From a virus: DNA of 64,000 bases. The notes beneath the pieces were generated by a model that worked only from the letters and a program-made list of their open reading frames with translations, made no database searches and was not told the DNA's origin. The stretch lies in the IMG/VR virus record IMGVR_UViG_3300033153_006243, positions 21,444-85,443 of that record; one strand, 5' to 3'. A program made the position numbers and the translations under genes. Each line of letters opens with the position of its first letter. The stretch's first letter is position 1. Below, in pieces: positions 3,065-62,304 of this stretch.

Positions 3065-3076
3065 GGAAAACGAAGG

Positions 3077-8033: not shown

Positions 8034-8047
8034 TAGGAGAAGAACGG

Positions 8048-8463: not shown

Positions 8464-8505
8464 GAAGCATTATTGGTATTTCGTAGTAGATAGGGGAGAA
8501 GGATA

Positions 8506-9612: not shown

Positions 9613-9991
9613 TATTCTGCTATCCGAAAAGTATCTAGTAAGCAGCCATTGGTATAGAGCAATGGCCGATGAGCTACAAAGGATAAAGCGGGGCCTTGAG
9701 GAAAGCCGGAGGGGGCTTTTTACCCTTGGGAAGACCCCGGAATCGAACCCCGAAATGTTTGGTAGGATTGATAGGGTATCGGGGGCTTGCGACGTGGCTG
9801 TAGCCCATCTCCATCTTACGAAGTTGGGACTAGACTTTGAGGAGAGTATAGCGGGGATAAGCGGTAGGGAGATTAAGGACATCAAGTGCCCTAAATGTGG
9901 GTTCGAGTGGGCGGAGAATCACCCGCGATTCTGTATGGTAGATATAACTTGTCCGTTCTGTGGAAAGGAGAAGGAGGCGGAACTATGGTAA
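9605..9991 (+). CDS. Hypothetical protein with C-terminal zinc ribbon
   Basis: CPKC..CPFC. Confidence 0.6.
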   Translation: MNDILLSEKYLVSSHWYRAMADELQRIKRGLEESRRGLFTLGKTPESNPEMFGRIDRVSGACDVAVAHLHLTKLGLDFEESIAGISGREIKDIKCPKCGFEWAENHPRFCMVDITCPFCGKEKEAELW

Positions 9992-10001
9992 GGAGGAATA
10001 G

Positions 10002-11405: not shown

Positions 11406-11442
11406 AAGTTGATGCGGGGTTACCGAGCTAAGGAGGATTCTT

Positions 11443-11853
11443 ATGTGGCATGATTGGGAATGGTTTAAGGCTGTAATTTGGATGTGGTGTTTAAGGCTTT
11501 TGTTGTGGGGATGCATTGTAATCGGCGTTAGTTGTACCTTTGCATTAGTTGCCACGATAGTTTACTGTATTAAACATTGGAACGATCCGGTTCCTAATTT
11601 GAGTGATCAGTTATTTACAGAGATGCTTAAGGACTACAATGATGGTTGGAGGCCGTCTACTGCTCAATTTGTACCTGGACTTTTCGGGGTACAAGTGAAT
11701 CCGTGGTATAAGAAGTGTCTTTCCCCTTCTAAGTTAGTGAAGTGGTCAGAAGAGGTTCCATTTGATGAGGAACATAAGGAAGAATACCATGAGCGGGCAA
11801 ACCTCGTTCTTGATACAATTTTAACATTAGCGAAGGACGCGATGCACCCATGA
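11443..11853 (+). CDS. Membrane-anchored hypothetical protein (AT-richer cassette)
   Basis: TAAGGAGG RBS; N-terminal TM segment. Confidence 0.65.
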   Translation: MWHDWEWFKAVIWMWCLRLLLWGCIVIGVSCTFALVATIVYCIKHWNDPVPNLSDQLFTEMLKDYNDGWRPSTAQFVPGLFGVQVNPWYKKCLSPSKLVKWSEEVPFDEEHKEEYHERANLVLDTILTLAKDAMHP

Positions 11854-12806
11854 AAGTCAACGTAGTAGGCAAGACAAACTTCCGCTGGCTTTTCCACGGG
11901 TTATCTACGGCCCTTGAGAAGAATATAGATGGGGTGAAGGCGACAAAATTCTATGAGAAGGGCTTCGATCTCTATCACTTCTTCAGGCCGCAGGATTTAA
12001 TGCGGGAGAATTTCTCGTGGGACGTTCCTGCTGTAACCTCCTGTTTCGGGGTAGTCCCCGGTGAGACAGACTACGAGAGCTGTAAGAAGGCTTACGATTA
12101 TTGCGAGAGGATAATCGTCCAGTCTACCCCGAACCGCCAGCATTTCCTCGACATAGGGATTGCCCCGGAGAAGATCGTAGTTATCCCTACGGGTTCCGAT
12201 CCGAACCTATTTGACTTCCAGGAATGGAATATGACTCTTCCGTTTACCGTGGGGTTTGTAGGTAAGTGGTATTGGCATCTCGGAACCGTCGTGGATATTA
12301 AGGGGCTGCATCTACTACGGGATACCTTCTTGGAGCTTGACCGTAGAGGAGTATATGCCCGGCTGTTTTTCCTCGGCCTCGGTTGGGAGAAGACCGTGGA
12401 TGAATTCCGCCAGTTGGGTATAGATGCCTTCAGCATGGAGCGGGACGTGGAGATGAAATGGCCGGAGGACTACCCCCTTTTCTATAACTGGATGGACTGT
12501 GTGATTGTTACGTCAAAGATAGAGGGGGGACCTGCCTGCATCACCGAGGCCCTTTCCTGCGGACGGCCCGTAGTCGGGACGGATGTGGGGATGGTTCACG
12601 ACTTAATTACGAATGGCATAAACGGATATATCTGCGACCGGAGTGCAGATGCTTTGGCGGGGGGAATCATAAAGATTCTACTTAAAAGGGAGTCCCTTGC
12701 GGCGGGGGGTTGGAGGGGGGTTAGGAATTCCGTTGAGGGGCTGACTTACGATAATTGGGTTTGGAGACATAGGGAACTTTATCAGGAGGTGCTGGATGGC
12801 TATTAG
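11850..12806 (+). CDS. GT4-family glycosyltransferase
   Basis: TSKIEGGPACITEALSCGRPVVGTDVG. Confidence 0.9.
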   Translation: MKVNVVGKTNFRWLFHGLSTALEKNIDGVKATKFYEKGFDLYHFFRPQDLMRENFSWDVPAVTSCFGVVPGETDYESCKKAYDYCERIIVQSTPNRQHFLDIGIAPEKIVVIPTGSDPNLFDFQEWNMTLPFTVGFVGKWYWHLGTVVDIKGLHLLRDTFLELDRRGVYARLFFLGLGWEKTVDEFRQLGIDAFSMERDVEMKWPEDYPLFYNWMDCVIVTSKIEGGPACITEALSCGRPVVGTDVGMVHDLITNGINGYICDRSADALAGGIIKILLKRESLAAGGWRGVRNSVEGLTYDNWVWRHRELYQEVLDGY

Positions 12807-13047
12807 GCCGATAGTGAATACGGGCTTGACTGAGCATAAACTAATGAGCGAGATTGACAATTCAATTCGCGGGGGGTTTGTTCTCCTTGCGAAGATTCTT
12901 GCCGTTTGGGTTTGTAGTAATAATCCTAGTCCGGAGGCTACGGCAAAGACTATAGGGGAGAGCATTGAGGACTACGCATATCAAGAGCAGGGACCCCCGC
13001 CTGATCCTATGAACGTTCTGGCCAAAATGAAAGAAAGAAAGGGGTAG
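12796..13047 (+). CDS. Hypothetical protein
   Basis: AGGAGG RBS. Confidence 0.6.
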   Translation: MAIRPIVNTGLTEHKLMSEIDNSIRGGFVLLAKILAVWVCSNNPSPEATAKTIGESIEDYAYQEQGPPPDPMNVLAKMKERKG

Positions 13048-13051
13048 AAAG

Positions 13052-13309
13052 ATGCCTTGGACTGCTAGCGACGCGCCGAGTACGGTTAAGACCCCGGCAA
13101 AGCGTAAGAAGTGGGCGGAGATAGCGAACGCCGTAAGGGAGGAGTGTATTGCCGACGGCGGCGAAGAGAAGGAATGCGATGCCCAAGCAAAGATTGTAGC
13201 AAGCACTACGGTTAAGAAGAAGGCGGAAATGATTCTTCCTACCATGAAGATCGTGGAGATCGCAAGGATAGCCAGAAAAGGGGCAGTCGAGAATGCCGGA
13301 GACGAATAG
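13052..13309 (+). CDS. Small phage protein (MPW..KKWAEIANA type, ChaB/DUF2188-like)
   Basis: N-terminal motif recalled from phage head modules. Confidence 0.55.
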   Translation: MPWTASDAPSTVKTPAKRKKWAEIANAVREECIADGGEEKECDAQAKIVASTTVKKKAEMILPTMKIVEIARIARKGAVENAGDE

Positions 13310-13637
13310 AGCGCCTATGCCGTTTATCGCACCGAAGAGACAGAGGGAAAGAATTGAGCAGGCGAGAACGATGAGGATTAACCTTACCGTCGAGTCGAAC
13401 GCCCATGAGATTCTTAAACGTATAGAGAACGAGATCGGCGGGCGGGTTGAACGAATCGAGATGGCGATTAAGGAGCTTACCGAGGCGATAGAGGACTTAG
13501 AGGGGCTTGAGGAGACATTCGAGATTGAGATGACCTTGCGGCCTAATGCAAAATGGAAGGAACCGAAAGAGAAGAAGCCCTCGTGGATTACGTGGGTATG
13601 GAGGCTGTTTGGGGTTCCAGGGCAGGCTAATCGGTAG
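13293..13637 (+). CDS. Hypothetical coiled-coil protein; 3' end overlaps tRNA-Gln
   Basis: ORF track; operon packing. Confidence 0.55.
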   Translation: MPETNRAPMPFIAPKRQRERIEQARTMRINLTVESNAHEILKRIENEIGGRVERIEMAIKELTEAIEDLEGLEETFEIEMTLRPNAKWKEPKEKKPSWITWVWRLFGVPGQANR

Positions 13638-13687
13638 GCCAACGGACTTTGAATCCGTCAGAGGAGGTTCGATTCCTCCCTCTGGAG
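13616..13687 (+). tRNA. tRNA-Gln(TTG)
   Basis: Acceptor TCCAGGG/CTCTGGA; ACGGA-CTTTGAA-TCCGT; GGAGG-TTCGATT-CCTCC. Confidence 0.88.
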
Positions 13688-13692
13688 CAAAC

Positions 13693-13760
13693 GCGGGTGA
13701 AAGGGTTTTGGCTTGGGATTCCATCCCAGGTATACGCGGGTTCGACTCCCGCCGCCCGCT
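13693..13760 (+). tRNA. tRNA-Gly(TCC)-like RNA lacking a D-arm
   Basis: GCGGGTG/CGCCCGC plus T discriminator; TTGGG-ATTCCAT-CCCAG; GCGGG-TTCGACT-CCCGC; only 13 nt where the D-arm should be. Confidence 0.72.
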
Positions 13761-13774
13761 CTAAGGAGATAGCG

Positions 13775-15175
13775 ATGCTAAAGGCAGAAGAAGAAGTAAT
13801 CAATCTCGCCGATTACTATAAGCCAAATAAGAGGCAATGGCTCGCCCACCAGAGTTCGGCCCTAGTCACCGGGGTCGGCGGCGCGAAGGGGGGCGGCAAG
13901 ACCGTGTTCCTAGTTAGGGAGGGGCTTGAACTGAGTCTCGATGTTCCGGGGAATGTGGGGTTTATTTGCCGACATGAGGCATCCTCATTTATCAAGAATG
14001 TCCTTCCGGTGATGGAGAAGTTTATTCCAAGGAAACTGATTAGGGAGCACAATAGGGTCCAAAAATATATGATCATTAACACCGATATCCCCTCCCTTCC
14101 GAGCAGAATCTATTATGGGGGGTTGAGGCCAACTAGGGGGGTAAGCCCGCTTGATAGGATTAAGGGATTCGGCGGGGGGTTAGGTTGGTTCGCAATAGAC
14201 GAAGCGAGCGAGACGGAGGAGCAGTTCTTCTTGATGCTATTGGGTGAGCTGAAGCTGAACCTTCTAGATAGGCACGGCAAACCTATGATACATAGGGCAA
14301 TGATCTCGACGAATCCCGAACCCGGATGGGTATATCGGAGATTCATCAAGAATCTTCCGCCTGACCATAGTTTCATCCCGTTTCTTCCAAAGGATAATCC
14401 GTTTCTTCCGAAGGATTACGTTAAACGGCTAAGAGCCAACTATCCTCCTGATTGGGTATTGAGGTACCTTGAGGGAATTTGGGCGGTAGAGTCCGATACT
14501 AATAGGGTCATTCCGTATCTGCTGCTTCAGAAGACCATAGATTTGCCGGAATCGGAGAACGGCCCTATACGGCTTGCCGTGGATGTCGCGAGATTCGGCG
14601 GGGATAGGTCGGTAATCGCCCGGAGTAGGGGGCCGAAGGTGAAGATACTATGGAGTAAATCCCATACGGACATGATGGTTGTTGCCGAGAAGGCCGTCCA
14701 GGAATACCGTAGGGAGGTTGCGTATCAACAGGCACAGCATAAGAAGAGGATAGAGGCCGGAAGGGATTCCGAACCTAATAAGGTCGATCTAATTATTGAC
14801 GCCGTTGGTTTGGGGGCGGGCGTGGTTGATCGGGTGAGGGAGATGGACAATAGTATTCGGGTAACGGAGTATATCGGCGGAGCTTCCGCAATGGAACCGG
14901 ATAGGTTCATTAACCTACGGGCGGAAACCTGGTGGAAGATGAGGAAGATGCTTGAGAATGGTGAGGTATGCCTTCCCGACGAGGACGAGCTTCACGCCGA
15001 ACTAACTGCACCGAAATACTCTATCCGTTCCGATCAGAAGATTGCGATAGAGTCTAAGGAGGATTTGAAGAAGCGGGGATTCCGGTCCCCGGATAAGGCC
15101 GATGCTGTAACGATGCTCTTTGGGGCGAAGGTGTTCCCAAAGTTGGATATTCTTATGTTAGGAGGTAGAAGATGA
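13775..15175 (+). CDS. terL: Terminase large subunit
   Basis: GGAKGGGKT Walker A, FAIDEASE Walker B, STNP, VDVARFGGD and SPDKADA; start ATG 13775 after AAGGAG (the upstream extension is tRNA). Confidence 0.95.
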   Translation: MLKAEEEVINLADYYKPNKRQWLAHQSSALVTGVGGAKGGGKTVFLVREGLELSLDVPGNVGFICRHEASSFIKNVLPVMEKFIPRKLIREHNRVQKYMIINTDIPSLPSRIYYGGLRPTRGVSPLDRIKGFGGGLGWFAIDEASETEEQFFLMLLGELKLNLLDRHGKPMIHRAMISTNPEPGWVYRRFIKNLPPDHSFIPFLPKDNPFLPKDYVKRLRANYPPDWVLRYLEGIWAVESDTNRVIPYLLLQKTIDLPESENGPIRLAVDVARFGGDRSVIARSRGPKVKILWSKSHTDMMVVAEKAVQEYRREVAYQQAQHKKRIEAGRDSEPNKVDLIIDAVGLGAGVVDRVREMDNSIRVTEYIGGASAMEPDRFINLRAETWWKMRKMLENGEVCLPDEDELHAELTAPKYSIRSDQKIAIESKEDLKKRGFRSPDKADAVTMLFGAKVFPKLDILMLGGRR

Positions 15176-16503
15176 GTTTCATTTCGAGAATCAAGAAGGC
15201 GGTGGGGGAGCTTGTCGGGAGAAGGTCTTCCCTTGGGGTTCCCTACATGCAGATCGGCGGGATGGGAATAGCATCCCCGAATAAGCCAAAGGAGTATCTC
15301 CAGTTATATGGAAGCATGGTCTGGGTCTATTCCTCAACCTTTGCGATATCGACGGGGGCGGCATCAGTTCCGATCAAGCTCTTCCAGATTAGCAAGGACA
15401 AGAAGGATCGTACTGAGATTCTAGATCACGATCTACTTACCCTTCTTAATAAGCCTAACGCCCATACGACGTGGAGCGAACTAATTGAGGGGACGCTGGT
15501 ATACCTCGAACTTACGGGAGATGCCTATTGGGAGATAGCAAAGCCTGCGGTAGGTAATCCGGGGGGGCTCTACCTTCTGCGGCCCGATAGGGTAAGGGTT
15601 AATCCCTCGGAGGACGGTAAGGCGGTTGCTGGGTATACCTATACCGTAGATGAGGGAAGGAGTAGGAAGAAGATCGCAAACTTCCCGGTGGACGACATTA
15701 TCCACTTCAAGTATTTTAACCCGCTTGACGACTGGCTTGGACAGGGAAGCGCAAAGGCGGCGACGGACACGATAATCCTTGAGCAATATGCTACCCGGTA
15801 TAATCAGGCGTTCTTTAAGAACTTCGGCTCTCCTGCCGGTTTCCTGAAGACCAACCAGCCTATTGATGAAAATGAGGCGGAAAGGCTCGAACGGAAGTGG
15901 GCACAGATGCATTCCGATCCATCAGATTCATTCAAGACCCCGGTACTTCCGGGCGGTATCGAGTATGAGGAGATAGGGCAGACCCCGCGGGGTGCGGAGC
16001 TTCTCGTTCAGCGGAAGGTCTGCCGCGAGGAGCAGCTTAGTTCCTTTGGCGTTCCTCCGGTAAAGGTAGGGTTGTTGGAGAATGCGAAGTACGCAAATTA
16101 TACCCTTCAGGATAGGGCGTTCTTTAGGGATACTATGCGTCCGAGATTGCGGATGATACAGGCGATAATCAACGTCTACCTCGTCCCGCTATTCGGGGAT
16201 AATCTACATTTCGAGTTCGATCTCTCAGAATATCTTGGCGAGGATAAGATACAGCAGATATTAAGGATCGAAAAGAGCATTTCCCTTGGTGCGATGACCC
16301 CGAACGAGGCTAGGAGAGAGCTTGACCTCGGCGAGCCATACGAAGGCGGGGATCAGTTCTATATGAGCACGAAGCTCCAGGCAGTTTCCGAAACTACGGA
16401 GAGCACCCTTGAGGGGGCCGCGCAGAAACTCGGCTATACTTCTGTTGCCCATTGGAAGTCCAGCCTGAAGAAGACCATTGAGGAGGAAGCAAAGCAGGAA
16501 TGA
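15172..16503 (+). CDS. Portal protein (HK97 family)
   Basis: LELTGDAYW, LRPDRV, IIHFKYFNP, FGVPP and TPNEAR motifs. Confidence 0.95.
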   Translation: MSFISRIKKAVGELVGRRSSLGVPYMQIGGMGIASPNKPKEYLQLYGSMVWVYSSTFAISTGAASVPIKLFQISKDKKDRTEILDHDLLTLLNKPNAHTTWSELIEGTLVYLELTGDAYWEIAKPAVGNPGGLYLLRPDRVRVNPSEDGKAVAGYTYTVDEGRSRKKIANFPVDDIIHFKYFNPLDDWLGQGSAKAATDTIILEQYATRYNQAFFKNFGSPAGFLKTNQPIDENEAERLERKWAQMHSDPSDSFKTPVLPGGIEYEEIGQTPRGAELLVQRKVCREEQLSSFGVPPVKVGLLENAKYANYTLQDRAFFRDTMRPRLRMIQAIINVYLVPLFGDNLHFEFDLSEYLGEDKIQQILRIEKSISLGAMTPNEARRELDLGEPYEGGDQFYMSTKLQAVSETTESTLEGAAQKLGYTSVAHWKSSLKKTIEEEAKQE

Positions 16504-17420
16504 AAGTTCCGTCGAAAGCGAAAAAGAAGCTATTCGCCCTGGACGTAATTCGGTTCCGTCTTAGTAGGGCGCGCATGATCCATCTTAGGACGAAACCCAT
16601 GTTCCAGGCTTGGGATAAACAGTGGGTAAGCTATACCCGAAAGAGCGGAATTCTTAATAAGGCCGAAAGGGAGGCTAAGAGAATTAGGGAGGTCCAGGGT
16701 CTAGTTAAGTCCGCAATTCCAATGGAAAAGGGGATGGCTATCGCCCTCGACGATTTCGGGGCGTGGCTGGATGATAGGGTACTTTTTCCATTCGATACCC
16801 CAAAGACTACTACCAAGAGAATCCATGATGGTCTTGTTAAGACGGCGGAGAAGTATGCCCCATTTCCAAAAAGGGGTTTGGGGCTTGCCGTTAGTTTGAG
16901 CCTCCAAGACCCGGCATACGCAGCGATTCTTGAGGGACGAGATAACCTGATAACCGTAGGGACGGCTAAAACCCGATTTGAGCAGATAAAGACTACGATT
17001 AGGGATGAGTTCATTCGGCATGGGAGGAATGCTGAGGAAGTACGGCGCGCCCTGCTTCCCGTTTTTAGGGATGCCTATAGGAACCAGGGATTATTGATAG
17101 CAAGAACCGAAGTTCACCATATTATTGGTAAGGCGAACTTCGAGACCTTTAAGGCGAACGGATTCGAGTTCAAGTCTTGGTATTGCGCCGGGAATAAGCC
17201 TTGTGATGTTTGTCTAGGTAGATGGGCGGAGGGAACCATCCCTTTTGGAGATGCGTGGGGCGATGGGGCTATGGACGCGGGGGATTCCCACCCGAATTGT
17301 TTTTGCATGATAGTACCGGAAAACCAAGGGGCAACTCCCCTACATCCTGTGGCTTTTGAGGGAATAGAAGTCCCGGATGCCGCTCTTGAACGCGGATATT
17401 GGGAGAGGGTTGCTGTTTAA
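16500..17420 (+). CDS. Minor head protein (Mu F / SPP1 gp7-like)
   Basis: IARTE..CDVC..HPNCFC. Confidence 0.85.
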   Translation: MKVPSKAKKKLFALDVIRFRLSRARMIHLRTKPMFQAWDKQWVSYTRKSGILNKAEREAKRIREVQGLVKSAIPMEKGMAIALDDFGAWLDDRVLFPFDTPKTTTKRIHDGLVKTAEKYAPFPKRGLGLAVSLSLQDPAYAAILEGRDNLITVGTAKTRFEQIKTTIRDEFIRHGRNAEEVRRALLPVFRDAYRNQGLLIARTEVHHIIGKANFETFKANGFEFKSWYCAGNKPCDVCLGRWAEGTIPFGDAWGDGAMDAGDSHPNCFCMIVPENQGATPLHPVAFEGIEVPDAALERGYWERVAV

Positions 17421-17442
17421 TCAATAGAATAGGAGAAAGCGA

Positions 17443-18393
17443 ATGAGGATCGAGGATCTCGATTCAGAACGGATTACTAAGCTGACCGACGGGCAGCTCT
17501 ATTCCATGCGGCTGAGGTTCATACAGATTTGGGATCGCTGGTTTACAAAGGGGACTCTACGGCTTAATGCCGCAGGGGGCCTTGACAGGGGGGAACTCCT
17601 GTCAAAGTATCAGGAGCTTGCCTCTGAGATGGGAAGTAGGAACCTAAAATTCAAGAGGCACCATAGTATCGACCGGGCGGCGTCGAAGGCTAAGATGTTC
17701 TTAGGTATTGATGTTCCCTCTCTTCCGACAAAGATAATTTCTGAGGGGTTCGTCTCTCTGGGGAAGGGATTCGTCGAGGATCCGAAGGGTGCTAAGATAA
17801 TCAAAGTCATCGTGAAGGGGGATAAGTCCGCCGCGCTTGAGAAGTACATTGCCAATATCCTAGATGGAATGGGCAAGCCGTTGGAGTTCTCCTTTGGAGA
17901 GCCGGAGGAGACCCATGCAATGGTCTATGACCTTGCCTTGATCCCACGACCTGAAATGGCGATAGTCAAGATTAAGGGGGGAACGGTTCCGGCTTCTTCC
18001 CAGAAGGTTAAGAAGGCCGAAGCTAATTTTGGGTTTGAGATTATGAAGGTAGATGAGGATAAGCATCTTATTGGTGGGGTAATCTACGCTCCTGATGAGG
18101 TTGATTCACAGGGGGATTACACCGATGCTGAAGAAATCTATAAGGCTATGGAATACTTCATGATCAATAGCCAGAAGATCAAGGTAATGCATAAGGGCAG
18201 GCAGATTCGGGCGGCAGTAATTGAAACCTATCAGGTTCCTATAGATTTGGATCTCTATGGTAGGGAGATTAAGAAGGGAACTTGGTGGATGACCGTAAAA
18301 GTTCTTGCCGAACCGGATGTATGGAATGATGTTAAATCAGGGAGATTCGGGGGATTCTCGATGGGTGGTAGGGCTATGGTAGCTGAAGAATAG
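17443..18393 (+). CDS. XkdF-like prohead protease (His and Ser-motif part)
   Basis: GVIYAPDEVDSQGD..MH..GTWW..VKSGRFGGFSMGG. Confidence 0.85.
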   Translation: MRIEDLDSERITKLTDGQLYSMRLRFIQIWDRWFTKGTLRLNAAGGLDRGELLSKYQELASEMGSRNLKFKRHHSIDRAASKAKMFLGIDVPSLPTKIISEGFVSLGKGFVEDPKGAKIIKVIVKGDKSAALEKYIANILDGMGKPLEFSFGEPEETHAMVYDLALIPRPEMAIVKIKGGTVPASSQKVKKAEANFGFEIMKVDEDKHLIGGVIYAPDEVDSQGDYTDAEEIYKAMEYFMINSQKIKVMHKGRQIRAAVIETYQVPIDLDLYGREIKKGTWWMTVKVLAEPDVWNDVKSGRFGGFSMGGRAMVAEE

Positions 18394-18403
18394 AATATTT
18401 GAT

Positions 18404-18432
18404 TTGACTTTTTACATGATTTCTGTTATAAT
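18404..18432 (+). promoter_or_regulatory. Strong sigma70-type promoter
   Basis: TTGACT-17-TATAAT with extended TG. Confidence 0.85.
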
Positions 18433-18706
18433 ATAGGCGCAAGAGAATACCGGCGGGTCGCCGGGATTTTAAGCCTATGGAGATGGAGAGAAAATCTCCT
18501 CTGTGAAGTAGGAACCTTAGCGCAAGGGGGAAGGGAGGTTAGTAGAAAGTTAATCTCTTTCCCACGCGCGCGAGGAGACCAGGAAAGGAATAGGCCAGGC
18601 TCGTATAGCAGGCCGTTCGCAGCGTTGGGAATCTACTCGTATAGTAGACCCGCAGCACTGGAAACAAATCGGTGCTGCGGGTTTTTTGTTGCCCTCGAAA
18701 GGAGGG
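18433..18706 (+). ncRNA. Structured leader or small RNA upstream of scaffold and capsid genes
   Basis: Several hairpins, duplicated CTCGTATAG, a terminator, and a hairpin over the SD. Confidence 0.55.
18648..18687 (+). terminator. Intrinsic terminator or attenuator
   Basis: ACCCGCAGCACTG/CGGTGCTGCGGGT stem followed by a T run. Confidence 0.85.
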
Positions 18707-18714
18707 AACCTATA

Positions 18715-20154
18715 TTGCCAGAAGCAAAGAGAAAGTTAAAGAACATCCAGCCGGAGGAAATTTCCCTTGTGGACTTTCCGGCGAATATGATCCCGTTCTT
18801 CTTTATCAAGCAGGACGAAAGGCTTGAGAAGGCAGAAGCGTTGAGCCTTGCAATTGGATCCGACGGAACCGCCGCCGGGACAGAGATTCAGGTCAACGGA
18901 AAGAAAATCAAGGATCTCAAAGAGTTTAGCTTTTCCTATTGGGTTCCTGATACTCCTACTGCGGAGGTATCGGAGACAATGGGGGATCAGTTAGCTCCTA
19001 TGATTACCGCAACTTGGGCGGTAAAAGGGGACAAAGCGGGGTTTAGGCATATCTACGGGATTAGCAAGGCGGAGATTGACGAGGCAAGGAAACTTTCGGG
19101 GGAATTGAACGACGCCGAGGAAATGAAGAAGGCATCGGCGCTTCTTGAGACCTATAGGGAGGACCTTCCATCCGATCTTGCCGGGGCGATGCAGTTCTTG
19201 ATTAGTAAGGCCCGTGGACAGGGACAGGGAGTTGGGGGTCCGCGACAGGGGGATGGTGGCGCGGATAAGTGTGTATGCCCCGATTGCGGGGCGGAATACC
19301 CACATGATAGAGGAACGCCATGTAATGAACAGACCTGCCCGGAATGTGGTGCTACGTTAGTAGGCAAGGCCAAGGGGGGGCCAGTTCCTCCGCATACATC
19401 TCCAAAGGCCCCTGAAGATATGGCTTGGAGTAAGCCGAAGGATTCCGAGCTGAAGGATTCCCATTACGCTTGGATTGACCCGGAATATGCAAGCGGGGAA
19501 TCCGAAGATAAAAGTAAGCGGAAACTTCCTCACCACCTACCTGATGGCAGGGTGGTCTGGCGCGGGGTTGCTGCCGCTGCCCAAAGGCTTGACGGAACTG
19601 ATATCCCCGAAGGTGATATGGCAGGGGTAAGGAAGCATCTTGAACGGCATTATACCCAATTTGATAAGACGCCTCCGTGGAAAGTTGAAAAAGGAGATGA
19701 AGAGATCGATACAACCGAAGTTTCTAAGGCGCGGGTAAAAATGCTAAAGGAACTCGAAGACTCCTTGGGAGCCGCATCGAAGATCATACGGGACCTAGCG
19801 GAATCCTTTAAGCCCGTCCAGAAGGACGAGGAGGGGGATACCGCCGGGGACGCCGCGGACGCTTCGGAGGGAACCGAGGATAAGACCGAGGACGCCGCTT
19901 CGGCGGGCGATAAGGATGGAACTACTGCGGTGGCTGAGCAGGGAACCCAGGCAGGCGACGCTAAGGACGGCGATGCGAAGGCCGAGGGAGCCGAAGAGGC
20001 CAGCGGAGGGGCGGGGGAAGATAAGACCGAAGCCTCCGCATCATTGTATACTCCCGAATTCGCCGAGACTATTGCTTCAACAGTAGGTACAGCGGTTTCG
20101 GAAAGTGTAGGTAGATTACTTGGTACTAATGACAAAGAAGGGAATTCAGAATGA
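18715..20154 (+). CDS. Head maturation/scaffold protein: protease EISLVDFPAN segment, zinc ribbon, acidic tail
   Basis: TTG start after AAGGAGG; EISLVDFPAN; CVCPDC..CPEC; KLPHH..VWRGV domain; precedes the capsid gene. Confidence 0.8.
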   Translation: MPEAKRKLKNIQPEEISLVDFPANMIPFFFIKQDERLEKAEALSLAIGSDGTAAGTEIQVNGKKIKDLKEFSFSYWVPDTPTAEVSETMGDQLAPMITATWAVKGDKAGFRHIYGISKAEIDEARKLSGELNDAEEMKKASALLETYREDLPSDLAGAMQFLISKARGQGQGVGGPRQGDGGADKCVCPDCGAEYPHDRGTPCNEQTCPECGATLVGKAKGGPVPPHTSPKAPEDMAWSKPKDSELKDSHYAWIDPEYASGESEDKSKRKLPHHLPDGRVVWRGVAAAAQRLDGTDIPEGDMAGVRKHLERHYTQFDKTPPWKVEKGDEEIDTTEVSKARVKMLKELEDSLGAASKIIRDLAESFKPVQKDEEGDTAGDAADASEGTEDKTEDAASAGDKDGTTAVAEQGTQAGDAKDGDAKAEGAEEASGGAGEDKTEASASLYTPEFAETIASTVGTAVSESVGRLLGTNDKEGNSE

Positions 20155-39137: not shown

Positions 39138-40235
39138 ATGTTGTACCAAAAGGTCTGCGAATATTGCGGGGAGCCGTTTGAAACTAGGGAATACCGGAGA
39201 AGATACCACCCGGAATGCGCGAGGAAATATAAGCGGGAACGGGCAAAGGAACTTCGGCGGGAAGATAGGAGGAGGAATAAGCAGGAGTTCACCTGCTCCC
39301 TTTGTGGTAAGAAGTATACGATCTCGATGTTGGGGAAGAACCTCGACGACTACAAACGGGCATGTCCATCCTGCCGACCAAAGCTTGCTCATGAGAGTAA
39401 GAAGAAAAAGGAAGAAGAACTATTTAGGGAGCTTAAGGAAACCCAGGAATGGTATGACAAGTGGCCCGTCCTTGAAGGCGACTGGATAGTCTCTGCGGAT
39501 TTCCACGGCCACCGCCTCTTCCTCCCGATGCTAAAGAGGCTCATTACGATAGCCAAGAAGTTCGGGATACGGAACCTGCTCATCAACGGCGACCTCTTTG
39601 ACGTGAATACCCTACAGCATTACGATATCTACGTCAAGGACTCCAACGTCCATAAGGAGATGGTGGCGGTTAGGAAGGTCATCGAGATTATCTTTATGCA
39701 TTTCGACCGGGTAATCTGGACGATGGGAAACCACGACCTACGACTCCTTCGGGTAATGCAATTCGAGGTTACGCCGGAAGACTTAGGCAGACGGATATGT
39801 GATAAGATGGATTCCGGGGAGCTCCAGGCTTCGCTCTATCCCTACGCGGTAATCAAGGGGAAGTTCGGGGACTACCGAATCACCCACCCGAATTCCTATG
39901 GAAATAGGACGGGAACCGTACCTAGAGCCTTATGCCATAAGTACCACAAGCACTGTATCGTTACCCACGGGCATCATGGGGGGATGGAATGGGATGATAG
40001 CGGCGACTACATGGCGATAGACCTTGGGGCGATGACCCATCATCAGCTTCATCCCTACATAATGTTCAGCGATACGACGCATAAGAGATGGAATCGGGAC
40101 TTCGGGATGGTCTACCGGGGGTCCTGGTATAGATTCACCGATCATCCCGCAGCGACCGATTGGGACTTCTGGCTAAAGGCGGTTGACCCGCGCAAGCTGG
40201 AGGGGAGAGAGAGAAAAGAGGAGATGCCCATTTGA
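39138..40235 (+). CDS. Calcineurin-like metallophosphoesterase with N-terminal zinc fingers
   Basis: ADFH, NGDLFD, GNHD, THGH; CEYC, CSLC, CPSC. Confidence 0.85.
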   Translation: MLYQKVCEYCGEPFETREYRRRYHPECARKYKRERAKELRREDRRRNKQEFTCSLCGKKYTISMLGKNLDDYKRACPSCRPKLAHESKKKKEEELFRELKETQEWYDKWPVLEGDWIVSADFHGHRLFLPMLKRLITIAKKFGIRNLLINGDLFDVNTLQHYDIYVKDSNVHKEMVAVRKVIEIIFMHFDRVIWTMGNHDLRLLRVMQFEVTPEDLGRRICDKMDSGELQASLYPYAVIKGKFGDYRITHPNSYGNRTGTVPRALCHKYHKHCIVTHGHHGGMEWDDSGDYMAIDLGAMTHHQLHPYIMFSDTTHKRWNRDFGMVYRGSWYRFTDHPAATDWDFWLKAVDPRKLEGRERKEEMPI

Positions 40236-40260
40236 CTTTTCTTTACAAATGGGGTATAAT
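40232..40260 (+). promoter_or_regulatory. Sigma70-type promoter of the tRNA operon
   Basis: TTGACT-17-TATAAT. Confidence 0.85.
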
Positions 40261-40269
40261 GATAGAACG

Positions 40270-40410
40270 TTGGGGGCAGTATCCGCCCCTAAGCCGGGCC
40301 GCTAGGCGAGGATACTTCGCCGAGTGCCGTAGGTCAATCGGCCTGTGACGGCGGGTTATACGATTGGCACGACGAACCTTCTGCGGAAGGGGATGGCCGG
40401 TGGCCCGGTT
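40270..40410 (+). ncRNA. Unassigned structured RNA with complementary hairpin loops
   Basis: Loops AGTATCC and GGATACT; 12-bp closing stem 40292-40303/40399-40410. Confidence 0.7.
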
Positions 40411-40419
40411 ATAAAATTC

Positions 40420-40493
40420 GCCGGAGTAGCTCAACTAGGTAGAGCAGTCGCCTTGTAAGCGAAACGTTGAGGGTTCAATTCCTTCCTCCGGCC
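40420..40493 (+). tRNA. tRNA-Thr(TGT)
   Basis: GCCGGAG/CTCCGGC; loop CTTGTAA. Confidence 0.92.
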
Positions 40494-40496
40494 CCT

Positions 40497-40760
40497 ATGA
40501 AATTCAAAATCTACGGCAGGGAATCCTGTCCCAAATGCCAATCTACCCGGCGTAAGATTTTCCACCTGCTCAAGCGGATAGGAATAGAGGCGGCGATATC
40601 CTATATCGAGATGGATACGGTGGATGGGATGGCGGAGGCGATGTGGGACGATGCCTATGAAGTACCTACTACGATCCTCTCGCTTGGCGGGGCGGAGATA
40701 TCCCGATGGAACGGACGGATTCCTAAGTCCGATGAATTGATTAAGGCGATGGGGGAATAG
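40497..40760 (+). CDS. Glutaredoxin/thioredoxin-like protein
   Basis: YGRESCPKC..VPT; start ATG 40497 after the tRNA. Confidence 0.8.
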   Translation: MKFKIYGRESCPKCQSTRRKIFHLLKRIGIEAAISYIEMDTVDGMAEAMWDDAYEVPTTILSLGGAEISRWNGRIPKSDELIKAMGE

Positions 40761-40824
40761 CTCTAATTGGGAGAGCGGCTGGTTTGCACCCAGTATGTTC
40801 GGGATTCGATTTCCCGTTCCTCCA
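40751..40824 (+). tRNA. tRNA-Ala(TGC)
   Basis: G3:U70 acceptor; loop TTTGCAC; overlaps the glutaredoxin stop. Confidence 0.9.
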
Positions 40825-40830
40825 CAATAT

Positions 40831-40913
40831 GCGGGTGTAGTCTTTAGGACGTCAAGAGACTAGGGCATTGCGCAATGCCTGAGTGGAAAATCAAATCTCC
40901 TCCACCCGCTCCA
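40831..40913 (+). ncRNA. Aberrant tRNA-Gly-like RNA with encoded CCA
   Basis: GCGGGTG/CACCCGC-T-CCA; 8-nt loop TTGCGCAA; no TTCG T-loop. Confidence 0.6.
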
Positions 40914-40919
40914 ATTTTT

Positions 40920-40991
40920 AGCATCGTAGCGCAACGGTAGCGCAGCTCCCTGTTAAGGAGATGATTGGAAGTTCGAATCTTCCCGATGCTG
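40920..40991 (+). tRNA. tRNA-Asn(GTT)
   Basis: AGCATCG/CGATGCT; loop CTGTTAA. Confidence 0.92.
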
Positions 40992-40996
40992 CTGAC

Positions 40997-41070
40997 GGTT
41001 ACGTAGACTGGCGAAGTAAGTCACTTTCCTGTCAAGGAGGAGATCGCGGATTCAAATTCCGCCGTAACCG
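40997..41070 (+). tRNA. tRNA-Asp(GTC)
   Basis: GGTTACG/CGTAACC; loop CTGTCAA. Confidence 0.85.
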
Positions 41071-41078
41071 CCTTTAAT

Positions 41079-41149
41079 TGCGGAGTGGAGCACTGGAGGC
41101 TCATGGGTCTCATACGCCCATTAAGGAGGTTCGATTCCTCCCTCCGCTA
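41079..41149 (+). tRNA. tRNA-Met(CAT), initiator-like
   Basis: 1:72 mismatch; loop CTCATAC. Confidence 0.85.
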
Positions 41150-41203
41150 CTATGGGGGCCCGGCTGTGACCCAGGAGATGGGAGTTCAATTCTCCCCATC
41201 CAG
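41150..41203 (+). pseudogene. tRNA-His(GTG) 3' remnant
   Basis: CTGTGAC loop and GGGAG-TTCAATT-CTCCC T-arm; no D-arm or matching 5' acceptor. Confidence 0.55.
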
Positions 41204-41328
41204 ACTCGATAGTATCATTACCAGATATACATTAGTGGATAGGTTTTTATCAAGGTAGTATATGTCCTTTACCAGAGGTAAGGGACCCACAAAGGCTTCT
41301 GCCGCTGAGCCGTATCGGCGGCATACTA

Positions 41329-41399
41329 GCGGAGCTGGTGTAATGGTAGCATCCTTGCCTTCCAAGCAAAGGGTGGGGGTTCGAATCCCCCGTTCCGCT
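41329..41399 (+). tRNA. tRNA-Gly(TCC)
   Basis: GCGGAGC/GTTCCGC; loop CTTCCAA. Confidence 0.92.
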
Positions 41400-41405
41400 C
41401 CTATT

Positions 41406-41479
41406 AGGTTTTTGATATAGTAATAACACGGTAGGTTCTAACCCCGTAGCCGGGAGCTCAATTCCTATAAGGTCTGCCA
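41406..41479 (+). pseudogene. Decayed Gln-type tRNA with CTA anticodon
   Basis: Standard tRNA spacing ending in GCCA; loop TTCTAAC; D- and T-stems mismatched. Confidence 0.6.
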
Positions 41480-41702
41480 ACTTAGGAGAACAAGGGAATG
41501 GAAAAGAAATGGGAAGAAGATTCTAGTGGGGTCGGGAAACTTGCAGCAAGAATAGCGGTAAGGAAATTAAAAATAATGCTAAAGGTTTTTCAAAAGGAGG
41601 CTAAAGAAAAAGAACAGGTGAGTAGTGCAATAGGCAAACATACCAACATATAATCGATTCCTCTAGGGCCTGCCGACTTAGGAGAACAAGGGAATGGAAA
41701 AG
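41461..41702 (+). repeat. 46-bp direct repeat pair (41461-41506 and 41657-41702)
   Basis: ATTCCT.TA.GG.CTGCC.ACTTAGGAGAACAAGGGAATGGAAAAG twice, 4 mismatches. Confidence 0.9.
41498..41653 (+). CDS. 51-aa hypothetical protein between the repeats
   Basis: MEKKWEEDSSG..HTNI*, using the duplicated RBS and ATG. Confidence 0.55.
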   Translation: MEKKWEEDSSGVGKLAARIAVRKLKIMLKVFQKEAKEKEQVSSAIGKHTNI

Positions 41703-42599
41703 CCCCACGGGATTATGTTCCACCATTTCCACGGGGGAGAGCATCCGAAGCAGCAAGGATCCATTTCGGAATCCGAATTCAACGGCCTACTCGATTTCTA
41801 TTCCAGGGATCACGCCATCCTCAGCGCGGATGAATGGAAAAGACGGGCGTTCTGTCAAACGCTCAACGAGAATGATGTCTGCCTTACCTTCGACGATGGA
41901 CTCCGGTGCCAGTACGACCTCGCGCTCCCCATTCTAAAGGATAGAGGGCTTACGACGTTCTGGTTTGTCTATACCGGGGAGCCGTGGGTAGAAATATACC
42001 GTAGGTTTCGGCATGAATTCTTCGATTCCATTGATAACTTCTACGCCGAATTCTATCGGCAGGCGAAGCTACAAGGGCTTGGAAATCTGTTCGACCGGAT
42101 ACCCATGCCCCTTAACTACCTTTCGGAATATAAGTTCTATTCGGATTCCGATAGACGATTCCGCTGGGTTCGGGATAGGGTTCTAAGCAAAGAACAGTTC
42201 GGTAGGATCATGCGCTCCTTAATGAATAGTAAAGATACAGACCCCGTAAAGCTAGCGGAGGGCCTAATAATGGGCGCAGAAGAATTCCAGGAATTGGTGA
42301 ATAGTGGGAACGTCGTCGGGCTCCATTCCCATAATCACCCGACGAACATGGCAGAGTTAGGCGAGAGGGAGCAGCTCAAGGAATACTATTTCAATCAATC
42401 CCACATCCTCGGCGCGACGGGGATTCTAGCAGACTCTATGTCCCATCCAAGCAATAGTTATAGCGAGAAAACCCTACGGCTCCTAAAAGCAATCGAAATA
42501 TCGCTAGGCTTCCGGGCGAACATGGAGGATGGGTACGGTTCTCTCTTGGAGATGCCGAGAGAGGATCATGCGAACATAATGAGGAGGATGAGGGAATAA
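41694..42599 (+). CDS. Polysaccharide deacetylase (CE4/NodB-like)
   Basis: LTFDDG; GLHSHNH. Confidence 0.9.
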   Translation: MEKPHGIMFHHFHGGEHPKQQGSISESEFNGLLDFYSRDHAILSADEWKRRAFCQTLNENDVCLTFDDGLRCQYDLALPILKDRGLTTFWFVYTGEPWVEIYRRFRHEFFDSIDNFYAEFYRQAKLQGLGNLFDRIPMPLNYLSEYKFYSDSDRRFRWVRDRVLSKEQFGRIMRSLMNSKDTDPVKLAEGLIMGAEEFQELVNSGNVVGLHSHNHPTNMAELGEREQLKEYYFNQSHILGATGILADSMSHPSNSYSEKTLRLLKAIEISLGFRANMEDGYGSLLEMPREDHANIMRRMRE

Positions 42600-43393
42600 G
42601 GATTACGGTGTTCACCGGGAACCAGCCGAGACATATCGCCCTAATCGAGAGGCTTGCGGAGAACCATAGGATATTCGTAGTGCAGGAGGTTACTACCCTC
42701 TTCCCCGGCTACGTTGAGGATTTCTATTGCAAGTCAAAAGCAATGCAAGAATATTTCGGTTATGTCCGCAGAGCTGAGCGGGAAATTTTCGGCCTTCCCC
42801 GCCTCCTTCCCGCCGGGGTTCGGGGGATTGCGATAAAGGCGGGGGATTTGAGGCTGATAGACCCCGACTACATCGATAGCGCCCTAGAATCGGATTTTTA
42901 TATTGTCTTCGGGAGCAGCCTAATCAAGGGCTGGCTCCTTACGTTTCTCCAGGATCATTACGCAATTAACATTCACATGGGGATAGCGCCGCAGTATCGG
43001 GGGAGTTCCTGCAATTTCTGGGCGCTATACGACAGACACCCCGAACTGGTAGGTGCGACGATACAAACCCTAGCAAAAAAGGTAGACGAGGGGGAGATTC
43101 TTTTTCACGCACTACCCGCAGTTGAGGAGGTAAACCCGTTCGTCCTCGGAATGAAGAGCGTCATGGCGGCGCACATTGGGCTAACAAAAGCTATTAAAGG
43201 CGGGGAGATATTCAAAATGGAACCCGTTAGGCAGGACCTAAGTAAGACAATCCGGGTCACACGAAATAGGGACTTCACCGACAAAGTTGCCGAAGACTAT
43301 CTACTCCTTAGCCCCCGATTTACTAATGGCGATCACGAGAAGGTACACAATAGGGCAATAGGCGATTTCGTCCGGCCTTTTATTCTAAATTAG
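42596..43393 (+). CDS. Formyltransferase-fold protein (possible ATA start; GTG 42608 is the alternative)
   Basis: INIHMGIAPQYRG..GATI..VDEGEIL. Confidence 0.85.
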   Translation: MRITVFTGNQPRHIALIERLAENHRIFVVQEVTTLFPGYVEDFYCKSKAMQEYFGYVRRAEREIFGLPRLLPAGVRGIAIKAGDLRLIDPDYIDSALESDFYIVFGSSLIKGWLLTFLQDHYAINIHMGIAPQYRGSSCNFWALYDRHPELVGATIQTLAKKVDEGEILFHALPAVEEVNPFVLGMKSVMAAHIGLTKAIKGGEIFKMEPVRQDLSKTIRVTRNRDFTDKVAEDYLLLSPRFTNGDHEKVHNRAIGDFVRPFILN

Positions 43394-43395
43394 AT

Positions 43396-43470
43396 ATGGA
43401 CGTAGCGCAGTTTAGTCAGCGCACCTGCCTTGGAAGCAGGGGGTCGGAGGTTCGAATCCTCCCGTCCATA
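43396..43470 (+). tRNA. tRNA-Pro(TGG)
   Basis: ATGGACG/CGTCCAT; CCTGC-CTTGGAA-GCAGG. Confidence 0.92.
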
Positions 43471-43507
43471 CGAAAGAGGCCCCTTTGGTTCTCCGAATAC
43501 TTTCCTT

Positions 43508-43816
43508 TCATCTCAACAGGTAGAACCCTACGATCATCAGCGCAACCCCAGCCCACTGTCTCATCCCGAACTCCGCAGCAACTCCAAGGTGAACGAGCAT
43601 CAAGTTATGGCCAAACAGCATTAAGGAATCGTAAAGCAGGCCATCTCTTACAAGGTTCTTCGAGAAGTAGCTGACGACGGTCCATAAGCTAATCATCCCG
43701 CAGAGGATCATAAAGGCGAACCACCTGCCCCCGTAGAGATTGTTCTGCCGCGAAAGCCAGGCGTAGAATCCGTAGTAGATAAGAACCGGCGGAACCCACC
43801 AGAGCTGACGAAGCAT
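43508..43816 (-). CDS. Small four-TM membrane protein (SMR/DMT-like)
   Basis: Four hydrophobic segments; QWAGVALMIVG. Confidence 0.65.
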   Translation of the reverse strand: MLRQLWWVPPVLIYYGFYAWLSRQNNLYGGRWFAFMILCGMISLWTVVSYFSKNLVRDGLLYDSLMLFGHNLMLVHLGVAAEFGMRQWAGVALMIVGFYLLR

Positions 43817-60032: not shown

Positions 60033-60818
60033 CTAGAATCTACTTCCGGGGAAAAGTTTCTGGAGATATTGTACGAAATATGAACTCCAGAATTGCGAAC
60101 TCGACAGCATCCCAAACCGAACCAGGCCGGGGGCGGCATAATCAATTAGAGCACGAAATACTATTCCCACCAGTTCGTCCTCATCCGTCGGGACCTTCCC
60201 GATATAAACCTTCAGCCGCTTTGCCGCTATGACAAAATTTCGATATTCATAGGATGGGTTCGACAATTCTAATGTCTTTCCAGATACTAACGGGCCGTAG
60301 GATGCTATCAGTTTCCCGGTCAGTTCGGGATTCTCGTCCCGTATCGGCTGCGGATCCTCCCTCTCCCACCATAGCTTTTTCCCCTCCTTCTGCGCCTTGA
60401 GGATCGCTTTCAAAAATGATTCTAGATTCTTGTATCCGTGGTTCATCACAGGACTTCCCCAAAGATGCCTTCCCCCCCGGCACACATCGAGATAGATATA
60501 GATTCTCTCGATAATCTCCGTATGGCTGAAGGAAAGCAGGGCTATCCGCAATCCCTTTCGGAAGGCCGCGGAATCCTCCTGTTGCTGGTTCCTGGTCTCC
60601 TTTGGCGATAGGGGACGGGATAGTTCGTTCCAAGCGGATAGGATGGTACATTCATCCTCCGTTAGCGGTGGCTGCTTCTCCTCCCTCTTCCTACCAAGAA
60701 TCTTTCGGGGACCCCTCGATTCTACCGGGGTGATCTTGATTCTACCCATCCCCGCCCACCCACGAATGAAGGCTTCAACGGGAATCTCTATCTCAAGCCT
60801 TATTTTCTTTTTGTCCAT
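60033..60818 (-). CDS. Hypothetical protein, possibly replication initiator-related
   Basis: AGGAGG RBS; heads the replication operon. Confidence 0.6.
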   Translation of the reverse strand: MDKKKIRLEIEIPVEAFIRGWAGMGRIKITPVESRGPRKILGRKREEKQPPLTEDECTILSAWNELSRPLSPKETRNQQQEDSAAFRKGLRIALLSFSHTEIIERIYIYLDVCRGGRHLWGSPVMNHGYKNLESFLKAILKAQKEGKKLWWEREDPQPIRDENPELTGKLIASYGPLVSGKTLELSNPSYEYRNFVIAAKRLKVYIGKVPTDEDELVGIVFRALIDYAAPGLVRFGMLSSSQFWSSYFVQYLQKLFPGSRF

Positions 60819-61133
60819 TATTTTTTCCTCCTATTATACCATAAATGGCTTCAACTTCATAAAACTGAACCCCACATATATATCCCTATATACCCTTCTT
60901 TTCTCCCCCCTGATTTCCCCCGATTTCCACCACCCCACCCCCCCTCTAAAGAGGGGGGTGGTGGGATGGATTGGAAAGACACGGGGAGGAATATTCAGGT
61001 TGGGGGGAGGAAAGGAAAAAGAGGGGATATGAAAATATAGAAAAATAGAATGGAAAAAATCTAGACTATTAGTATTGAAATAGATATTCACCCGGCAAGC
61101 CTTTAGGCTAGAGAAGTTTATCCGTCCATCTTG

Positions 61134-61245: not shown

Positions 61246-62304
61246 ATGAAGATTGATCGAGCAAAGTTAGTCGGAGTTCTTGAATCTCTATCCCCCCTAG
61301 CATCCGCCGATTTGCTGACGGCGTTCAGCCGACATGCGGCGTTCCTTGGGGACAGGGTGCTTGCTACGGATACGATGGTATGGGGAGAGATGAATTCCCC
61401 GGTTGATATGAGGATTGCCCTTGACGTTCCGAAGTGGCTTGCCCTTCTCAAGTCCCTGAAGAAGCATAAGAGCGTCGAGATCGCCGTAGATGAAACGGGG
61501 AATCGAGTAGAATTAAAGGCCCCTCGGCATTCCTCGAAGCATATCTCCACAGTTTCCGTTGATGCCTTTCCTGAACGGCCTTCTCCGTCGGACAAGGCTT
61601 CCCCTTGGGATATGGATGCCGAGGAGGACGAGAGTACATTTTGCATCGGCCTTGAGAAGTGTGCGGCCCTTGCGGCTCAGGCAGGCGGGGAATACGGGGC
61701 TATCTACCTCTCCGAGGATGGGATGTACGCGACAGATCGCTATCGCGCCTGCTGGTTCCCGTTTGCCTTCCCGCATCTCAAGGGGGGGAAGTGGGTGGTA
61801 CTCCATCTTCGGTTCGTAGATATGCTGAGGAAGTGGGGCGTCCCGGAGAGTCTAAGGCTAGAGGGAGGGGTTATCGAGGCGGCATACGAAGATAAGAAAC
61901 TTTCCGGTAGGTTTAGGGAGGAGAAGTTCCCCGAACCCCTGATTAAGCTTCTCCATGAGGGAAGTAAGTCTGAGTTCAGTCCCTACCCCGACGATTTGGG
62001 GGGGGCATTATCGCGGCTTGCGTTGGTGAGGGCGGACACGAAGGAGGAATCGGGGCTTAAGATTAGCGGGGGTGGCTGGAGACTGGTACACCAGGGCGTC
62101 GCCGGAGAGGTGAGCGAGAATCTCATAGGGAAATATGATGTTGAGGCTCCGATTGATCTGGAGATATATTCCGGGTTCTTCACCGAGGCGATAGGGAGGA
62201 CGGATCAGTGGGTAGTGGTAGATTCGGGGGATTCGGCGAAATTCTACTTCCGGGACGAGGATACCGGATTTATAGAAATGGTGGCGGTTGGAAAGGGAAA
62301 GTGA
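61246..62304 (+). CDS. Divergent sliding-clamp (DnaN-like) protein
   Basis: MKIDRAKL, VLATD, DAFP, YATDRYR and KFP; 352 aa; directly upstream of the polymerase. Confidence 0.7.
   Translation: MKIDRAKLVGVLESLSPLASADLLTAFSRHAAFLGDRVLATDTMVWGEMNSPVDMRIALDVPKWLALLKSLKKHKSVEIAVDETGNRVELKAPRHSSKHISTVSVDAFPERPSPSDKASPWDMDAEEDESTFCIGLEKCAALAAQAGGEYGAIYLSEDGMYATDRYRACWFPFAFPHLKGGKWVVLHLRFVDMLRKWGVPESLRLEGGVIEAAYEDKKLSGRFREEKFPEPLIKLLHEGSKSEFSPYPDDLGGALSRLALVRADTKEESGLKISGGGWRLVHQGVAGEVSENLIGKYDVEAPIDLEIYSGFFTEAIGRTDQWVVVDSGDSAKFYFRDEDTGFIEMVAVGKGK

Follow-up and report, generated by a model that had tools for sequence, protein, structure and literature searches.

Introduction

Extra small RNAs that still lack an explanation have been recognised in phage tRNA clusters from T4 onwards. 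The T4 genes rnaC (species 1) and rnaD (species 2) specify two non-tRNA RNAs that lie in the tRNA cluster, on the same strand as the tRNAs, and are described in the T4 annotation as 119-139 nt long, presumably cut from the same precursor and of unexplained function. Both lie at the cluster's end, and rnaC, which has a tRNA-like T-arm, is strongly folded (z = -4.6). We know of no complementary loop pair in either.

Loop pairing and tRNA-adjacent multi-helix folds are features of other described RNAs. RNA I and RNA II of ColE1 carry fully complementary 7-nt loops that form a 7-bp loop-loop helix, and RNA nanorings have been designed from them; these loops belong to two antisense transcripts that regulate plasmid replication. 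The phi29 packaging RNA (pRNA; RF00044) carries mutually complementary loops of 4 nt on one RNA, and their pairing drives intermolecular rings. YrlA RNAs (RF02553), which are tRNA mimics, have an end-to-end long stem that closes a multi-helix module and are sometimes found beside phage tRNAs. ROOL and GOLLD are large phage-associated RNAs located near tRNAs that self-assemble into homo-oligomers (PMC12286853).

Here we describe a locus in a phage record of 85,443 bp from IMG/VR, within a stretch of 64,000 nucleotides (the window). A non-coding stretch of ~150 nt lies between a promoter and tRNA-Thr, the first gene of a tRNA operon. As with T4 rnaC and rnaD, the RNA shares a phage cluster and a coding strand with tRNA genes but is not a tRNA itself; it differs from them in standing at the head of the cluster, directly behind the promoter, and in having no tRNA-like T-arm. 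Our preferred reading, to which we assign a probability of about 0.5, is that a stable structured RNA forms the leader of the operon, would be released from it by RNase P, and would be held together, or joined to further copies, by pairing between two of its loops.

Genomic context

The record comes from a tailed phage: it encodes a large terminase, a portal, a major head protein and a tape-measure protein. The last two products of its structural module are a PKD-domain fibre protein of 1,475 aa and a 365-aa metallophosphoesterase (39138-40235), the N-terminal ~90 aa of which contain four conserved cysteine pairs and look like a zinc ribbon. The promoter, the RNA and tRNA-Thr come next. Downstream of tRNA-Thr, on the same strand, come a thioredoxin-fold ORF and then tRNA-Ala, Asn, Asp, Met and Gly; beyond tRNA-Gly lie a deacetylase and a formyltransferase-like gene (sugar-modifying ORFs) and then tRNA-Pro. 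The RNA and six tRNA genes form a contiguous run on one strand, and terminator prediction found none on the + strand anywhere in 39800-43800. The stretch that specifies the RNA is a GC island, at 61-63% versus ~51% phage-wide.

Other spacers of the operon also hold folded sequence. The spacer between tRNA-Ala and tRNA-Asn (40831-40913) has a cloverleaf-like predicted fold (-31.1 kcal/mol, z = -3.2) whose acceptor-like stem of 7 bp precedes UCCA; CCA is not encoded in the genes for tRNA-Thr and tRNA-Ala. In the position of an anticodon arm it can be modelled either with an 8-nt loop or with a GCGC loop on a 7-bp stem, it contains no canonical T-loop, and neither ARAGORN nor Rfam reports it. The spacer between tRNA-Met and tRNA-Gly (41151-41328) includes a canonical-looking T-arm (GGGAG-UUCAAUU-CUCCC, ~41180-41196) with no surrounding tRNA, together with two strong hairpins at ~41264-41286 and ~41300-41323. 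These elements could represent either additional small RNAs or the remains of tRNAs.

Promoter and predicted fold

The features of the locus, from the promoter to the first tRNA, are as follows.

40230-40260, + strand: sigma-70-type promoter, comprising ATTTGACTTTT (extended -35), TTGACT at 40232-40237, a 17-nt spacer and TATAAT at 40255-40260
40266-40269, + strand: predicted transcription start and short unpaired 5' end, placed by the usual -10 to +1 spacing (6-8 nt)
40270-40292, + strand: H1, 5'-terminal GC-rich hairpin with a stem of 7-8 bp and the loop AGUAUCC at 40278-40284 (pair probability p 0.91-1.00)
40271-40277 / 40285-40291, + strand: predicted pairs of the H1 stem in the minimum-energy (MFE) fold
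40292-40303 / 40399-40410, + strand: P2, 12-bp closing stem with 3 G.U pairs (p = 0.88-1.00, except for the terminal A-U pair shared with H1, p 0.52)
40305-40321, + strand: H2, 5 bp (40305-40309 / 40317-40321) with the loop GGAUACU at 40310-40316
40328-40374, + strand: P4, long irregular arm formed by CGU/ACG, GUCAAUCG/CGAUUGGC and GCCUGU/GCGGGU (p = 0.53-0.89)
40377-40390, + strand: P5, CCTTC-TGCG-GAAGG, 5 bp (40377-40381 / 40386-40390; p = 0.96-0.98)
40411-40419, + strand: AU-rich single-stranded spacer, 9 nt ahead of tRNA-Thr
40420-40495, + strand: tRNA-Thr(UGU), first tRNA of the operon (ARAGORN and Rfam)

The two hexamers of the promoter (40232-40260) match the consensus at 11/12 positions, and the -35 hexamer and the metallophosphoesterase stop codon overlap. 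An earlier sequence-only reading of this stretch had the RNA starting just downstream of a consensus promoter, and this holds: TATAAT ends at 40260, H1 begins at 40270, and only ~3-4 unpaired nucleotides would separate the predicted transcription start from H1. The pattern ATTTGACTTTT-N12-16-TATAAT occurs twice in the window (at 18402-18432 and in the promoter of the RNA) where 0 are expected, and the whole 85-kb record contains the same two copies and no third. Since the extended form occurs exactly twice in the record against an expectation of 0, and the other copy fronts capsid genes, we take 40232-40260 to be a genuine promoter of the phage.

The second copy of the promoter is likewise followed by an ORF-free structured leader, of ~190 nt (window 18402-18625; MFE -70.8 kcal/mol, z = -3.0), with an ORF (18625-20154) and the gene for the major head protein downstream of it. 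No similarity was found between the two promoter-linked leaders, and R1, a covariance model built from the single RNA sequence and its fold, matches only itself in the genome.

The RNA (40268-40415, + strand) has a predicted MFE of -75.3 kcal/mol, and the MFE and centroid structures are the same. Its stability corresponds to z = -3.8, and 0/200 dinucleotide shuffles were as stable; the - strand folds at -57.5 kcal/mol (z = -2.5). Because 8/46 modelled pairs are G.U and the opposite strand is much less stable, the fold signal is at the level of RNA and specific to the + strand, not that of a DNA palindrome. Appending the tRNA leaves the fold unchanged. Good folding is expected of GC-rich sequence in general, and another segment of the window is more stable than this one.

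The predicted architecture is a 5' hairpin (H1) joined to a four-way junction of H2, P4 and P5 closed by P2, with pair probabilities of 0.9-1.0 for H1, P2, H2 and P5. H1 and P2 share a nucleotide and so have zero spacer, H2 starts 1 nt past P2, and P5 ends in a UNCG-type tetraloop, C(UGCG)G. The internal pairing of P4 is the least certain part, with alternatives within a few kcal/mol. All sequence elements named in the sequence-only reading are present, each where it was placed or within one base of that position. Its hairpins 1 and 2 recur in the fold, as do the 12-bp stem closing a multibranch domain (40292-40303 with 40399-40410), which here encloses the four-way junction, and the CCTTC-TGCG-GAAGG hairpin. 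Two other pairings fared less well. Both strands of its GCCGT/ACGGC helix exist (40326-40330 and 40348-40352) but fall outside the minimum-energy fold, and the two segments that it paired as a pseudoknot, GTCAATCG/CGATTGGC (40333-40340 and 40361-40368), are present but form a nested helix in the MFE structure. This nested helix is topped by GCCUGU/GCGGGU within a P4 domain of -20.5 kcal/mol. GCCGU/ACGGC combined with the pseudoknot constitutes one of the near-energy alternatives of P4 and is not favoured; a pseudoknot is thus possible in these models and is not needed to explain the fold. An 11-nt tetraloop receptor was also considered, from CCUAAG at the H1/P2 junction, and was rejected by eye: the partner strand is unfit and a GAAA loop is absent.

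Loop-loop complementarity

The loops of H1 (AGUAUCC) and H2 (GGAUACU) are exact reverse complements over 7 nt, as the sequence-only reading had proposed for AGTATCC and GGATACT and as can be read directly from 40278-40284 and 40310-40316. The closing pairs that flank them are non-complementary, and the match is therefore limited to the loops. As a plain duplex, the two loops have a predicted energy of -7.8 kcal/mol. The energy model adds two further pairs to H2, G40310.U40316 and G40311-C40315 (p ~0.9), which reduce its loop to 3 nt, so a 7-bp kissing interaction would need to displace both of them.

How often such a match arises by chance was estimated from first-order Markov simulations of the window, under a strict definition of two hairpins of >=5 bp, <=120 nt apart, with fully complementary 7-nt loops. 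The expectation is 0.033 per 64-kb strand and ~8e-5 for this 150-nt gap, figures that depend on taking the hairpins as given, because a looser definition yields ~1.2 counts per window by chance, and that concern a complementarity spotted post hoc in a scan of very many windows. We take the hairpins as given because their pair probabilities justify it. The value for the gap agrees with the simple 4^-7 for two given 7-nt loops, and the expectation falls to 0.007 in the simulations if stems as long as those observed are required. On balance, we consider it quite probable that the loop complementarity has been selected. The loop 7-mers show no enrichment of trans targets within the phage.

Two geometries appear compatible with pairing. 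H1, P2 and H2 could stack as a rod of ~25 bp, given that helices joined by the shortest linkers usually stack, and the complementary loops would then lie at opposite ends; such a rod would favour pairing of successive copies head to tail. In the other geometry, opening of the weak U-A pairs at the H1 base would let H1 and H2 bend inwards and form a triangle with P2, for which rough lengths give ~49 A to span against ~52 A available.

The length of the match sets the RNA beside the described loop-pairing systems in different ways. Like phi29 pRNA, it carries mutually complementary loops on one RNA, of 7 rather than 4 nt. The match is as long as that of ColE1 RNA I and RNA II, but in the present case a single sense transcript of a tRNA operon carries the two loops.

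Coding potential and known RNA families

The stretch is without a credible ORF: the frames that overlap the gap are all started by TTG or GTG, span 37-63 codons, and in two cases continue into the tRNA gene. Rfam 15 at gathering scores over the whole window placed no family at the RNA, and at E <= 10 over 40200-40500 on both strands found only the tRNA. The sequence-only reading could match the RNA to none of tmRNA, SRP, RNase P, 5S or 6S, and had proposed an Rfam comparison; the Rfam 15 result agrees with it for those five even at E <= 10 and adds no other known family.

ARAGORN, run with default and relaxed thresholds, with introns and in tmRNA mode, reported nothing on the + strand, and its sole relaxed call was a spurious one on the minus strand at the 70% threshold. 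T-loop and D-loop motifs are absent from the RNA. We therefore rejected a tRNA, tmRNA or YrlA identity, given that no cloverleaf was detectable by ARAGORN or Rfam. The RNA does share with YrlA the end-to-end long stem that closes a multi-helix module, but the sole YrlA match scores 13.2 bits (E = 6.5) and lies in the true tRNA-Thr, at its D-arm, outside the RNA. ROOL and GOLLD share its phage-linked, tRNA-adjacent niche, but are several-fold larger than ~150 nt and gave no Rfam match here; they oligomerise, whereas oligomerisation of the present RNA is hypothetical. Hammerhead, twister, twister-sister, pistol, hatchet, HDV-like, hairpin and VS ribozymes were likewise rejected, with no match to a family model at E <= 10 over 40200-40500. 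As far as models can tell, the RNA belongs to no described tmRNA, SRP, RNase P, 5S, 6S, pRNA, YrlA or ROOL/GOLLD family and to no class of self-cleaving ribozyme.

The general proposal of the sequence-only reading, a compact RNA with a tertiary fold, stands to the extent that the RNA is promoter-driven, non-coding and strongly folded, with a likely loop-loop contact. The roles it suggested, a ribozyme or a multimerising RNA of the pRNA type, are unsupported: no self-cleaving family is matched at E <= 10, the phi29 pRNA family is unmatched, and the phage has an ordinary large terminase.

Search for relatives

No homologue of the RNA was found across viral, metagenome, genome and cultured-phage collections by pattern, protein, BLAST or covariance-model searches. 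BLAST against 50,697 cultured-phage records at E <= 1e-5 matched only the tRNA portion, and the RNA alone, searched against the same 50,697 records at E <= 10, returned only noise. A pattern of the loops with their closing pairs gave 42 matches in viral contigs, all of them coding or due to chance; with both closing pairs it gave one chance match, inside a coding region, in metagenome contigs and 0 in genome contigs. A 20-mer from P4 and a 27-mer from tRNA-Thr each had 0 matches in viral contigs. Compared with the T4 cluster with filters off, R1 revealed no homology (best 3.4 bits, E = 1.4), and a paralogue search of the whole 85-kb record with R1 recovered only the RNA itself.

The promoter pattern occurs at 117 loci in viral contigs, over which R1 scored at best <=17 bits (E ~0.1), at unrelated sites. 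A few of the 117 loci show the layout of promoter, leader and tRNA, and their leaders are unrelated. In an unrelated phage of 94.6 kb (IMGVR_UViG_3300021387_001034), the 12.6-kb stretch examined contains four ATTTGACTTTT..TATAAT promoters, and behind one of these a strongly folded leader of ~380 nt without ORFs (4325-4830; -113.7 kcal/mol) precedes a tRNA-Thr(CGU); R1 found no match in this stretch.

Further searches were anchored on six proteins, five from the window and one from the rest of the record. For the metallophosphoesterase, a single viral relative was found at 32% identity, and neither tRNAs nor an R1 match accompany it; its best relative among 5.8 billion proteins (48% identity) is on a 2.9-kb JGI contig, and a metagenome scan with the metallophosphoesterase alignment found none. 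The thioredoxin-like and formyltransferase-like proteins gave no relatives as anchors. Identities were only 24-25% for the portal against IMG/VR and ~30% for the terminase against cultured phages, the terminase and phosphoesterase both staying at <=35%, and TnpB had only uninformative matches of 34% identity in GTDB genomes. By these protein comparisons, the phage is an orphan lineage.

Discussion

This RNA is of a known kind, the extra small structured RNAs of phage tRNA clusters; what is new is a fold without detectable relatives. We consider it a singleton candidate of the T4 rnaC/rnaD type, and a probably real, clean and testable RNA with an unusual perfect loop-loop match, represented by a single sequence.

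The transcription start, release by RNase P, stability and loop pairing are steps that we infer. Host RNA polymerase would initiate at ~40266-40268 from the near-consensus promoter, and the nascent RNA would fold with H1 atop the 12-bp P2, which closes the four-way junction with H2, P4 and P5. RNase P cleavage at tRNA 5' ends is universal, and a cut at the 5' end of tRNA-Thr (40419/40420) would free an RNA of ~145-155 nt. Release of a leader by processing, as proposed here, is also the biogenesis assumed for T4 rnaC and rnaD. The released RNA should persist because both of its ends are buried in helices, and it would be made in step with the tRNAs. Pairing between the H1 and H2 loops would either clamp the 5' hairpin on the core within one molecule or link copies. 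The product might then act in trans during infection, for instance by decoying or scaffolding host or phage factors directed at tRNAs, which is a guess. At roughly even odds, we prefer an RNA that has its own role to a cis-acting leader, a chance structure, a ribozyme or a packaging RNA.

The first alternative is a purely cis-acting leader that shields a long, largely untranslated tRNA transcript from 5' decay. 5'-terminal stem-loops are established stabilisers of bacterial transcripts, and the RNA lies directly behind its promoter with ~3-4 unpaired nucleotides before H1. The structured leader of ~190 nt behind the twin promoter at 18402-18432 may even indicate a habit of this phage. For simple stabilisation, however, the 5' hairpin alone suffices, and a reading in which one hairpin is enough leaves the four-way junction and the perfect 7-nt loop match unexplained. 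The two leaders are moreover dissimilar, R1 matching only itself. Variants in which the leader aids escape from premature (Rho-type) termination, or guides processing, and is functionless once released are weighed jointly with protection from decay; neither by eye nor by Rfam was a boxA-like or put-like motif recognised. We regard these cis-acting readings, taken together, as possible but unlikely.

It is less probable still that the structure arose by chance, as a GC-rich spacer between a promoter and a tRNA with coincidentally matching loops. The negative homologue searches provide no conservation support, the pairing of P4 is ambiguous, and loosely defined pairs of complementary loops arise about once per window in random sequence. 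Under the strict definition, however, the expectation is 0.033 per strand and ~8e-5 for the gap, and a chance structure would also have to account for a fold of z = -3.8 with a strand bias and 8 G.U pairs, for a local GC island inside a tightly packed phage genome, and for a P5 hairpin with a C(UNCG)G cap.

There are known cases of self-cleaving ribozymes associated with phage tRNAs, and a compact RNA with several helices and a tertiary contact has the overall appearance of one that could process the operon transcript, but no ribozyme family of Rfam 15 matched the 301-nt query at E <= 10, no catalytic core motif was recognised by eye, and RNase P already covers the single cut needed, making this reading very improbable. 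A packaging RNA of the phi29 type is scarcely credible: the two mutually complementary loops are indeed the feature behind pRNA rings, but the pRNA model is unmatched, the virus type, packaging machinery and genomic location (here a tRNA operon) differ, and the ordinary large terminase, portal and tape-measure tail give no hint of an RNA-dependent motor.

The rod geometry raises the prospect of a self-assembling RNA unit. Each rod would kiss the next copy and not itself, producing dimers, rings or filaments with P4 and P5 pointing outward. We think this improbable; if true, it would amount to a small phage-made assembly of RNA only, co-produced with tRNAs.

The importance of the RNA is unproven, as it is a single sequence with no conservation support. 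It is experimentally tractable, being short, having its own sigma-70 promoter and making one sharp prediction, the 7-bp loop-loop pairing. Should the pairing be intermolecular, the RNA would provide a very small natural RNA-only assembly; should it be intramolecular, it would show a phage locking the 5' end of a stable RNA.

With a non-canonical tRNA-like RNA in this operon and an RNA ligase gene in its genome, the phage may also suit the study of phage-host conflicts over tRNAs. The ligase (PF09414) and a TnpB-type protein are encoded to the left of the window (record 1-20000; 5478-6095 and 17929-19128), together with RecA/UvsX-like and gp32-like proteins, a clamp-loader subunit and an SbcCD-like pair. 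The presence of an RNA ligase with tRNA genes suggests tRNA repair. More broadly, and as a guess, the tRNAs, the RNA at 40831-40913, the RNA ligase and the adjacent phosphoesterase hint at a tRNA-directed conflict.

Two further elements of the window were observed in passing. On the - strand at 215-283, three ATTTTACTTTT words lie 29 nt apart and are part of an array with a 29-bp period. The strongest fold of the window, at ~60880-61030, is an imperfect palindrome with C-rich and G-rich arms (-77 to -83 kcal/mol on either strand). It separates two divergent ORFs, 60033-60818 (-) and 61246-62304 (+), and is a possible origin or operator region.
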